From the IMG/VR virus record IMGVR_UViG_3300044636_000600, positions 1 through 62,597 of that record: a stretch of DNA of 62,597 bases, one strand, 5' to 3'. The translations under genes and the position numbers were made by a program. This document shows positions 32,286 through 33,473 of this stretch, piece by piece. The DNA comes from a virus (lineage: Duplodnaviria > Caudoviricetes). The notes beneath the pieces are model-generated. The model did not search any database. It was not told the DNA's origin and worked only from the letters and a program-made list of their open reading frames with translations. The number at the start of each line of letters is the position of its first letter. Positions within the stretch are counted from its first letter, which is position 1.

Positions 32286-33473
32286 CTATCGTTCCTGGCG
32301 CGAGATTTCCAGGGATGACCAAGCCAGTACGCTGGATGAGATTTCGGTATTTTTCCCAGTGGCACGCTCAAGCGACGCCACCTTGATACGCAACTCGCTG
32401 TTCTCTCGGTAGAGCCTGGCGTTGTCGGCCAGCACTTTTTCGATAGCGTCGGCATGATCGTCAATAATGCCTTGCGCATAGGAGCGCACTCTTTCCAAGT
32501 GTGTCGCCAGCATAGCGGCTGATTCTGGCACCTGGGGGAAAAGAGCGGCTACGCGTGCCACTTCCTCCCCGGCGCGGTTGATGGCATCGCGCACAGTGGC
32601 GAAGTGACGGCGGTGCAATTGCTCTTGTCCGATGGGCGTAGCGGCTTTTTGCTCCTCTCTTGCCCGATCTCGCTTCTTGCGTTCAACCTTCTGTGCTTTT
32701 TCCTTTTTGGCAAATTCCAGCAGCGTGTCGGGCATCCCAGCATCAACCCACTTTTTTACGTAGGTTGGCTTTGCCGGTGTTCGGCGCGCTTCATCCTGCA
32801 ATCGATTGCGCTCCGGTAGTGTTAGCGCATATTCACCCGCCAGTTGGTCAAGCTCCGGTCTGGGTGGCACGACATTCCAGAAGGACAGGATGCGGTCAGC
32901 CAGCGATTCAACAGGGATATTCCACACAACTGACTTGGCGGCAAACCAGTCGTATAGTTCCGCCTGTTCGCCAACCAGCTGGCTGCGGTCTAACTTGGCA
33001 TAGAGGCTTTGCGACTGGCGGTAATTTTCCCCACGAAACATTTGCCACAAATGGGCGGCAATTTCCTCTTTCGCGTTTGTGCGGTGTCCCCAATCGGTTT
33101 CCCAACTCTTTTCCATCCATTCATAAAGACGGCTATTCTCAATGCTGTGATGTGGTTTGGCGGCCATGATCCGTAGATCCCAGAAGCGGCTCTCCGCAAG
33201 GTCAACCAGGACAATACGGATTTTGCCAAGCCCTGCCCGATGCGCGGCCACTACGCGATGTAGACCGTCGATAATTTTGCGATTGTGCAGGCAGACATAA
33301 GGCGGGAAAACAATTTGACCTTTGTGCGCCGGGAGAGAATTGATAATCTCCTGGACGTGCGCTTCATTGACCGTCCAATCAACGAGAAGTTCACCGGGAT
33401 CAACTTCGACAATCGTCATGCTTTCCCGTTCGTTGGCAGTAAAAACATTATCTAAAACTTTGGTGGAATCCAC
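32286..33473 (-). CDS. ParB/Srx N-terminal domain protein with helical/coiled-coil C-terminus, coupled to the Cas12-like gene
   Basis: IIDGLHRVVAAHRAG ParB motif; GTG at 33473 with AAGGGAGG RBS, overlapping the upstream gene by 26 nt. Confidence 0.8.
   Translation of the reverse strand: MDSTKVLDNVFTANERESMTIVEVDPGELLVDWTVNEAHVQEIINSLPAHKGQIVFPPYVCLHNRKIIDGLHRVVAAHRAGLGKIRIVLVDLAESRFWDLRIMAAKPHHSIENSRLYEWMEKSWETDWGHRTNAKEEIAAHLWQMFRGENYRQSQSLYAKLDRSQLVGEQAELYDWFAAKSVVWNIPVESLADRILSFWNVVPPRPELDQLAGEYALTLPERNRLQDEARRTPAKPTYVKKWVDAGMPDTLLEFAKKEKAQKVERKKRDRAREEQKAATPIGQEQLHRRHFATVRDAINRAGEEVARVAALFPQVPESAAMLATHLERVRSYAQGIIDDHADAIEKVLADNARLYRENSELRIKVASLERATGKNTEISSSVLAWSSLEISRQER

Follow-up and report, generated by a model that had tools for sequence, protein, structure and literature searches.

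The gene studied here lies at positions 32286 to 33473 on the minus strand of a virus record of 62,597 bp from lake water (IMG/VR record IMGVR_UViG_3300044636_000600), which has a completeness estimate of 96% and is called the window in the following, at its full length. The gene codes for a protein related to the ParB/sulfiredoxin (Srx) superfamily, the ParB-like protein, and follows a CRISPR array and the gene of a Cas12f-like effector that appears to have lost its nuclease activity (dCas12f). From 36193 to 32231 of the minus strand these elements form a compact unit of a promoter, approximately 175 nt of non-coding DNA, the array, the 506-aa gene, the 395-aa gene and a terminator. The features are as follows.

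36165..36193, minus strand: sigma-70-type promoter-like site TTGACA-17-TATGAT with TG, heading the unit (11 of 12 hexamer positions match)
35986..36160, minus strand: putative trans-activating CRISPR RNA (tracrRNA) with two anti-repeat segments and a terminal hairpin followed by a T-run (sequence reading)
34977..35834, minus strand: CRISPR array, 12 repeats of 37 nt and 11 spacers of 35-37 nt
33448..34968, minus strand: probable nuclease-dead Cas12f/TnpB-like effector, 506 aa from GTG 34968 or 504 aa from ATG 34962
33479..33486, minus strand: Shine-Dalgarno sequence AAGGGAGG of the ParB-like gene, within G-G-Y codons of the effector C-terminus
32286..33473, minus strand: ParB/Srx-like partner protein, 395 aa (translation, homologue alignment, profile and structural matches)
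32231..32274, minus strand: intrinsic-terminator-like hairpin, 18-bp stem followed by a T-run, 12 nt past the stop of the ParB-like gene

No strong terminator was found between the promoter-like site (36193-36165) and the terminator-like hairpin (32274-32231), and this layout shows the tracr-like region, the array, dCas12f and the ParB-like gene as one predicted promoter-to-terminator unit. The promoter-like site is nearly identical in the relative L002; sigma-70-type sites are not enriched in the region overall (4 found versus 3.3 expected). Contigs of 157-215 nt from a freshwater metatranscriptome library were identical to portions of the dCas12f and ParB-like genes. They give a weak hint of expression, as DNA carry-over may explain them, and the parts that they leave uncovered prove nothing.

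The original prediction had placed the ribosome-binding site of the ParB-like gene inside the last codons of the effector gene, and direct reading of the sequence confirmed it. On the minus strand, AAGGGAGG is followed by the 5-nt spacer CTACC (33478-33474) and the start codon GTG (33473-33471), and the upstream effector reading frame including its stop ends at 33448, which gives an overlap of 26 nt in a different frame. The open reading frame (ORF) 32286-33473 reads through as 395 aa without an internal stop. A longer alternative start exists (TTG at 33527); all six homologues having an N-terminus begin no more than four residues from the GTG start. Because GGAGG-N5-GTG by itself is not rare (2 occurrences in the window versus 1.48 expected by chance), its weight lies in its conservation. 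In L005, a metagenome contig of 1,733 bp whose ParB-like protein is 49% and whose Cas12f-like C-terminus is 58% identical, GGAGG-ATACC-GTG is found at the same place together with an identical 26-nt overlap, and the GGYR[G/E]FH motif at the effector C-terminus is kept in 5/5 full-length effector homologues. These observations show the predicted translational coupling of the effector and the ParB-like gene to be conserved.

The two genes also remain together among relatives. Close homologues of the ParB-like protein are rare (7 proteins in word-based searches), and the effector gene or its C-terminus was directly upstream in all five loci with visible upstream DNA (the window, L002, L003, L004 and L005). 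A preponderance of close homologues without the CRISPR locus, which would have spoken against a dedicated partner, was thus not seen. Since four of the five loci are 96-98% identical to each other, they stand for two independent lineages only. Three further effector-partner pairs are suggested by contigs of equal size (5390, 2789 and 26265 bp), and the two proteins diverge in parallel (96/98% and 49/58%). In L003, a relative with 96-97% identity, an IS607-type element (L003:215-2057) with a serine recombinase (Resolvase 7e-18) and a 399-aa TnpB (OrfB_IS605 1.7e-21) lies between the array and the dCas12f gene; the effector-partner junction is intact despite this insertion. Conserved adjacency and overlap, parallel divergence and the substituted RuvC positions described below support the proposal that the ParB-like protein is a dedicated partner of a nuclease-dead Cas effector.

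Searches in other collections returned little beyond this group. No ParB-like homologue was confirmed in GTDB species genomes, tblastn of P0001 and P0163 gave no match in phage and plasmid collections, and a metagenome scan for ParB-like loci found three, all of them close relatives. The locus itself (32200-36300) is common in its habitat: 17 of 24 runs among those listed, all labelled lake water metagenome, carry at least half of the sampled words, and when contigs of four runs were aligned to the locus, two lake DNA runs matched 32200-35080 without a single difference. A wastewater library contains a divergent copy of the locus with 173 differences across 2.8 kb.

The record as a whole codes for terminase, portal and long tail-type genes as well as for DnaN, an ERF recombinase, a primase, a DnaB helicase, RecU, a dCTP-deaminase-like protein and DNA methylases. 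A Pfam scan of 27 ORFs of the window revealed no integrase or plasmid gene. Just upstream of the operon promoter lies a small ORF (36232-36576, minus strand) with a Cys-x2-Cys...His zinc-ribbon-like motif and no Pfam family. Pfam found no methyltransferase domain in the ParB-like protein, in agreement with the original prediction, which had set it apart from two other ParB proteins of the record with a methylase. That comparison holds for one of them: 50978-52681 is a fusion of ParB_N with an N6/N4 DNA methylase and the sole other Pfam ParB_N in the record, whereas 57779-59212 is a second methylase with a large insertion and without ParB_N at E <= 0.1.

Effector, guide RNA and spacer targets

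Going by its sequence, the best label for the upstream gene product is a nuclease-dead Cas12f-like protein. It matches NCBIfam TnpB (3.4e-11) and Cas12f2 (1.3e-7), in either case falling well short of the curated cut-off, and the PADLOC Cas12f models (down to 4e-7). The protein has a Cas12f/TnpB-type RuvC-TNB core and keeps the CxxC...CxxC zinc finger, and its gene adjoins the CRISPR array, which lies 8 nt upstream. The D-E-D triad of the RuvC domain is not intact, as the corresponding positions are T in RuvC-I (GITDN), M in RuvC-II and G in RuvC-III; RuvC-I and RuvC-II were assigned by profile alignment to dVemCas12e and the RuvC-III Asp position by UnCas12m4a. Engineered dead Cas12e structures and Cas12m both align with the profile of the effector family. 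Among the effector homologues, RuvC-I is T, S or A followed by D-N, and RuvC-II is M in all five full-length proteins; RuvC-III is G in three of these five, and the Asp is retained in the other two (P0013 and P0014). An Asp kept in two proteins beside a RuvC-II M in all five looks like the stepwise decay of a site that was probably already dead. The effector family is rare, with 6 proteins in word-based searches even with a profile, a size not comparable with the 228 ParB-like representatives given below, which stem from an exhaustive hidden Markov model (HMM)-type search.

Upstream of the array we infer a tracrRNA. The first anti-repeat, GTCACAC (36149-36143), is complementary to the 3' end of the minus-strand repeat and the second, CTAAATCCTGTTTT (36035-36022), to its middle; such an arrangement of anti-repeats and hairpin is the layout expected of a Cas12f tracrRNA. 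Pairing with the second anti-repeat is possible for AAACAGG as well as for AAGTAGG, the two repeat variants, in one case via G-U. The variants are grouped in blocks of identical neighbours, and their few differing positions preserve the anti-repeat pairing through G-U. The tracr-like region is nearly identical in L002, its fold z-score is just -1.9, and no Rfam family was matched in 34900-36300.

The spacer content turns over fast between near-identical phages: two relatives with 96-98% identity, one with three spacers and the other with at least two, share 0/3 and 0/2 of them with the array of the window. None of the 11 spacers matches the window itself, and the whole array found no target in curated phage and plasmid collections. 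In the related virus records G001-G003 the array matched nothing but other arrays, with the same outcome in the reciprocal search, and an exact 26-nt piece of the leader-proximal spacer had no match in IMG/VR. At least five of the 11 spacers (35014-35050, 35088-35124, 35162-35198, 35309-35344 and 35748-35784) match contigs in four public lake-water, freshwater and wastewater runs, and since these contigs are flanked by non-repeat DNA, the protospacers are located in other, co-occurring DNA. The matches show that the spacer targets are real and lie outside the phage. In all four available flanks GCC is present, 0-1 nt away, on the side of the protospacer adjacent motif (PAM), that is, 5' of the protospacer in the sense of the CRISPR RNA (crRNA). 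We regard it as a PAM-like signal, consistent with a minus-strand orientation in which the repeat handle is 5' and the spacer 3'. At least two protospacers seem by eye to be inside open reading frames, and the summed contig depth over the matched spacers is equal to or above that of the phage itself.

Fold and family of the ParB-like protein

The ParB-like protein belongs to the ParB/Srx superfamily by its fold and by homology of its N-domain; this part of the original prediction was borne out by profile matching and by structure prediction with a subsequent structural search. Taken alone, the protein barely reaches ParB models (PHROG 'ParB-like partition protein' 0.002, TIGR00180 0.007), and Pfam assigned it to no family, including ParB_N; the relative P0020 reaches Pfam ParB_N weakly (2.6e-5, under the cut-off). 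An exhaustive profile search returned 228 cluster representatives at E <= 1e-3, of which 101 reach E <= 1e-10. The alignment A3 comprises 36 full-length family members, rows of partial coverage being excluded, in which G70, H72, R73, F97, W98, R101, A105, R115, W119, W124, W176 and W184 are invariant. Searched against PDB sequences, its profile matches Myxococcus ParB (8e-10), Helicobacter pylori Spo0J (1.8e-6), Noc (4e-6), Bacillus subtilis Spo0J (1e-5) and plant sulfiredoxin (1.8e-5).

The AlphaFold model obtained with a deep alignment has a pLDDT (predicted local distance difference test) of 88.4 and a pTM (predicted template modelling score) of 0.66, compared with a pLDDT of 70.9 with 8 sequences. 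It consists of an N-domain (residues ~16-108), a Trp-rich helical domain (~113-250), a charged helical hairpin (~251-339), a long helix (341-371) and a conserved tail. The elements noted initially are present: IIDGLHRVVAA occupies residues 67-77, the Trp-rich middle (11 Trp in the protein, 2.8%) is a helical domain in the model, and the C-terminal coiled coil EKVLADNARLYRENSELRIKVASLE is found near residues 344-368 within the long helix, which in the model could dimerise. The best VIA matches of the N-domain reach Z ~9-9.4 with a root-mean-square deviation (rmsd) of 2.6-2.9 Å over 79-89 aa. Among them are ParB-CTPgammaS (Z 9.0, rmsd 2.8 Å, 87 aa), PadC (Z 9.0), sulfiredoxin (Z 9.4), free serine kinase (Z 9.1) and SbnI (Z 8.6), all five lying within one Z unit of each other, in effect a tie. 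Osa, in PDB a plasmid fertility-inhibition factor, matches the protein at Z 4.9-5.5. The only good match over two domains is pNOB8-like ParB-N (Foldseek E 6.4e-6; VIA Z 8.7, 188 aa, rmsd 6.0; model residues 12-248). Residues 201-258 align structurally to ParB, Noc and KorB but at an rmsd of 4.5-13 Å, and residues 279-374 match generic coiled coils only.

The arginine-rich motif GERRxRA forms the CTP pocket of ParB, as stated in the available part of PMC10786196. The HMM alignment sets RIIDGFHRvvAA of the ParB-like family against RIIAGERRWRAS, so that the G and the second R are kept, the E is replaced by F or L and the first R by H. G70, H72 and R73 are invariant in 36/36 family members, and none of the 36 retains the glutamate or the first arginine of GERRxRA; where the Myxococcus ParB E93A entry (7o0n) has its glutamate mutated, the family has F or L. 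The alignment of the profile to ParB ends at E94, ahead of the next conserved ParB block. In ParB this block is an ENLQR-type motif, and at its position the family reads, by eye, [S/A]-A-K-[Q/P]-H. G-x-H-R is a motif of the sulfiredoxin/SbnI/serine-kinase type, and these ATP-using enzymes tie with ParB as the best structural matches. As had been noted, there is no ParA in the window: PF13614 and PF01656 gave no match in the 62.6-kb record, and the controls matched in 14/14 genomes. The N-terminus of the ParB-like protein, on reading, contains no LG-R/K-GL motif for binding ParA. With G-[F/L]-H-R in place of GERRxRA, an alignment that stops before the next ParB block and no ParA, the CTP-dependent clamp found no support in the form initially proposed. 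Judged by these features the protein is not a canonical ParB CTPase clamp, and it may still bind a nucleotide at G-x-H-R.

Two sets of more remote relatives were observed. Distant relatives of 540-605 aa (including P0148 and P0160; alignment A5) share the N-domain and the Trp-rich helical domain, and some of them end in sigma domains of the extracytoplasmic function (ECF) type (Sigma70_r4_2 in 5/22, Sigma70_r2 in 3/22). To our knowledge, a fusion of a ParB-like protein with sigma domains has not been described previously. The IMG/VR loci L008-L018 contain remote phage ParB-like genes of 316-402 aa in a conserved arrangement, with a gene of 892-1,244 aa (892-909 aa in six of seven) upstream on the opposite strand and genes of ~220, 150-250 and 520-670 aa downstream.

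Possible roles of the ParB-like protein

We tentatively favour the explanation that the ParB-like gene codes for a dedicated accessory subunit recruited by a phage-borne, nuclease-dead Cas12f CRISPR module, which could well be the case. This view draws on the operon layout, the conserved overlap, the adjacency, the parallel divergence, the fold, the dead effector, the external targets and the precedents of AspA, KorA and TasA. The complex of dCas12f and crRNA would locate a protospacer beside a GCC-type PAM in a co-occurring rival or host genome and form an R-loop that it is unable to cut. The ParB-like protein, made in step with dCas12f, would be recruited or retained at this R-loop as a dimer and, probably gated by a nucleotide at G-x-H-R, would coat, bridge or otherwise occupy the neighbouring DNA. 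Through the added occupancy a point roadblock would become a lasting silencing of the target's transcription or replication, with the ParB-like protein acting as a divergent ParB/Srx protein and not as a canonical CTPase ParB. The more specific proposal that the guides direct a coating or clamping protein to selected sites in the genome of a rival or host, and that the uncut R-loop seeds its spreading into a heterochromatin-like block, is possible but appears doubtful to us.

Several observations weigh against an accessory subunit. The family has many relatives with 23-32% identity (at E <= 1e-10 it counts 101 cluster representatives) and may function mostly without Cas12f. Fifteen remote IMG/VR loci share only the N-domain, and dCas12f was found in none of them. 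The sigma-factor domains to which some distant relatives are fused suggest a role of a different sort. No helix-turn-helix (HTH) could be clearly assigned in the helical middle domain, which matches neither HTH_ParB nor KorB in Pfam, and structural matches beyond residue 108 have a high rmsd. Binding, nucleotide use, DNA contact and dimerisation of the ParB-like protein are properties that we infer. Co-folding of dCas12f (A2) and the ParB-like protein (A1) gave a score of 0.23 compared with a mark of 0.32 and, as it was run without controls, counts neither way.

The alternative that survives best, although we consider it rather unlikely, is that the ParB-like protein is an enzyme which restores a destructive or modifying activity, such as a nuclease, NTPase or phosphotransferase of the ParB/Srx fold, dCas12f providing the address only. 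Its invariant G-x-H-R resembles the phosphate-binding motif of the sulfiredoxin type, ATP-using folds are at the top of the matches of the better model, and Osa is found among the matches too. However, no nuclease motif could be defined, and a long linker with a coiled coil is unusual among small enzymes of this fold. Near-identical protospacers furthermore persist in the runs of the phage at a depth equal to or above its own, a weak argument given mixed populations and crude depths.

A CTP-gated sliding clamp of the canonical type, for which the R-loop of dCas12f replaces parS as the loading site and which, once closed by CTP, slides and spreads over kilobases, is improbable. Such clamps are able to silence at a distance, as described for KorB in the available text of PMC11790492, and the N-domain has CTP-bound ParB, PadC and Caulobacter ParB among its closest structural counterparts (Z 8.5-9.0, rmsd 2.7-2.8 Å), while the order of N-domain, helical domain, linker and C-terminal helix in the model resembles ParB. 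The loss of the glutamate and the first arginine of the CTP motif throughout the 36 aligned members is difficult to reconcile with this mechanism, as are the early end of the profile alignment, the divergent residues at the ENLQR position and the equally high scores of sulfiredoxin, serine kinase and SbnI.

We see a still smaller chance that the protein connects the RNA-guided binder with the machinery of transcription, be it as an activator, an anti-silencer or a recruiter of sigma factor or RNA polymerase. A nuclease-dead Cas12f that recruits a sigma factor has been published (dCas12f-sigmaE; PMC13472631, in the part available), VirB is described as a CTP-binding regulator that offsets H-NS silencing (PMC10653881, likewise in part), and the sigma domains of the long distant relatives would fit. 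Pfam found no sigma domain in the ParB-like protein itself, however, the fused relatives are distant (E ~1e-6), and the fast turnover of spacers suits competition or interference better than the regulation of fixed genes.

It is similarly improbable that we are dealing with an ordinary phage ParB-like gene for DNA organisation, packaging or regulation, which is co-transcribed by an accident of gene order. Phages very commonly carry ParB/Srx proteins, a further ParB_N protein is encoded by this phage, and the set seen beside dCas12f is very small compared with the wider family. Mere gene order does not readily account for an identical 26-nt overlap with an internal Shine-Dalgarno sequence kept across 49-58% protein identity, for the presence of the effector upstream of every visible close homologue, or for a junction left intact next to an IS607-like insertion. 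Partition of the phage via its own DNA was rejected, given 0/11 spacers matching the window, no ParA, and no integrase or plasmid gene in 27 ORFs.

Comparison with known systems and significance

The closest analogue of the ParB-like/dCas12f pair, a pair that we favour as effector and accessory subunit, is TasA-TasParB of the TIGR systems. There, too, an RNA-guided DNA binder without nuclease is encoded in phages and mobile elements in an operon with a ParB-like gene, and TasParB has a predicted C-terminal dimerisation and a function that is left unexplained in the available part of the report (Faure et al., Science 2025; PMC12045711). TIGR systems, which we liken to the phage module by their description, differ in having a TIGR array and a Nop-domain Tas protein in place of a CRISPR array with 37-nt repeats and a Cas12f/TnpB-derived protein. 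The AspA-ParB-ParA system of pNOB8 (PDB 5k5d/5k5a) provides the best two-domain structural match of the ParB-like protein. In this system the site-specific binder AspA recruits ParB-N, and aspA overlaps the 5' end of parB with its own 3' end (PMC5120986, in the part available). In contrast to the phage module with an RNA-guided binder, a coiled coil and no ParA, pNOB8 has ParA, a protein-guided binder and a CenpA-like C-terminus, and a self-partition as in pNOB8 is unlikely because the spacers do not match the phage's own DNA.

Canonical ParB, Noc and KorB (PDB 7bnr, 6sdk, 7ol9, 8qa8) share a homologous N-domain (profile E 8e-10 to 1e-5, Z 8.3-9.0) and a similar domain order. For RK2, it is reported in the accessible text of PMC11790492 that DNA-bound KorA holds KorB at operators to silence them. 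These proteins differ by GERRxRA (here G-[F/L]-H-R), HTH_ParB, ParA and LG-R/K-GL, none of which was recognised in the phage protein or record. Sulfiredoxin, SbnI and free serine kinase (PDB 6ky4, 5ujd, 5x0b) share the ParB/Srx core (Z 8.6-9.4, rmsd 2.5-2.9 Å) and have a G-x-H-R-type motif where ParB has GERR; however, they are small or differently extended ATP-dependent phosphotransferases acting on proteins or serine, without a coiled coil or DNA targeting.

On the side of the effector, RNA-guided proteins with an inactivated RuvC that act by binding are described, as far as the texts were available, for dCas12f-sigmaE (PMC13472631) and for Cas12m and Cas12c (PMC11013384, PMC12669027), and the TnpB-derived TldR belongs here as well (bioRxiv 10.1101/2023.11.30.569447). 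The phage effector differs from them in its rare family (6 proteins), which is far under the cut-offs of the Cas12f and TnpB models. In dCas12f-sigmaE the output is likewise supplied by a co-encoded partner, according to the part of PMC13472631 that was available. This partner is a sigma factor, whereas the phage module has a ParB/Srx-like partner and a sizeable, fast-changing array. A pairing of Cas12 and ParB was not found in a full-text literature search, which did not cover supplements that may list one. The term 'ParB' is absent from the main texts of PMC13472631, PMC11656645 and PMC12669027; in the available part of PMC10910872, the list of Cas12 partners contains no ParB and the term 'partition' has 0 occurrences.

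We place the module among the binding-only type V systems, as one whose accessory protein is of a new class. The known outputs of binding-only Cas12 proteins are a roadblock (Cas12m, Cas12c and TldR), the recruitment of sigma factor (dCas12f-sigmaE) and the recruitment of transposition machinery (Cas12k). With a conserved ParB/Srx partner these outputs would be extended by a new one, and the unexplained TasA-TasParB operons would gain a tractable, CRISPR-based counterpart. With two proteins of together ~900 aa, a defined array, a candidate tracrRNA and a candidate GCC PAM, the hypothesis is directly testable in E. coli. If the partner spreads or bridges from a guide-defined site, the module would be a natural programmable silencer, and, alongside TasA-TasParB and the protein-guided AspA-ParB, it would be the third case in which a guided binder and a partition-type protein were independently united. 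Relatives with fused sigma domains give a hint that transcription, too, may be served by this ParB-like module. As the locus is common in lake-water runs, the module may matter for phage-phage or phage-host dynamics in freshwater.

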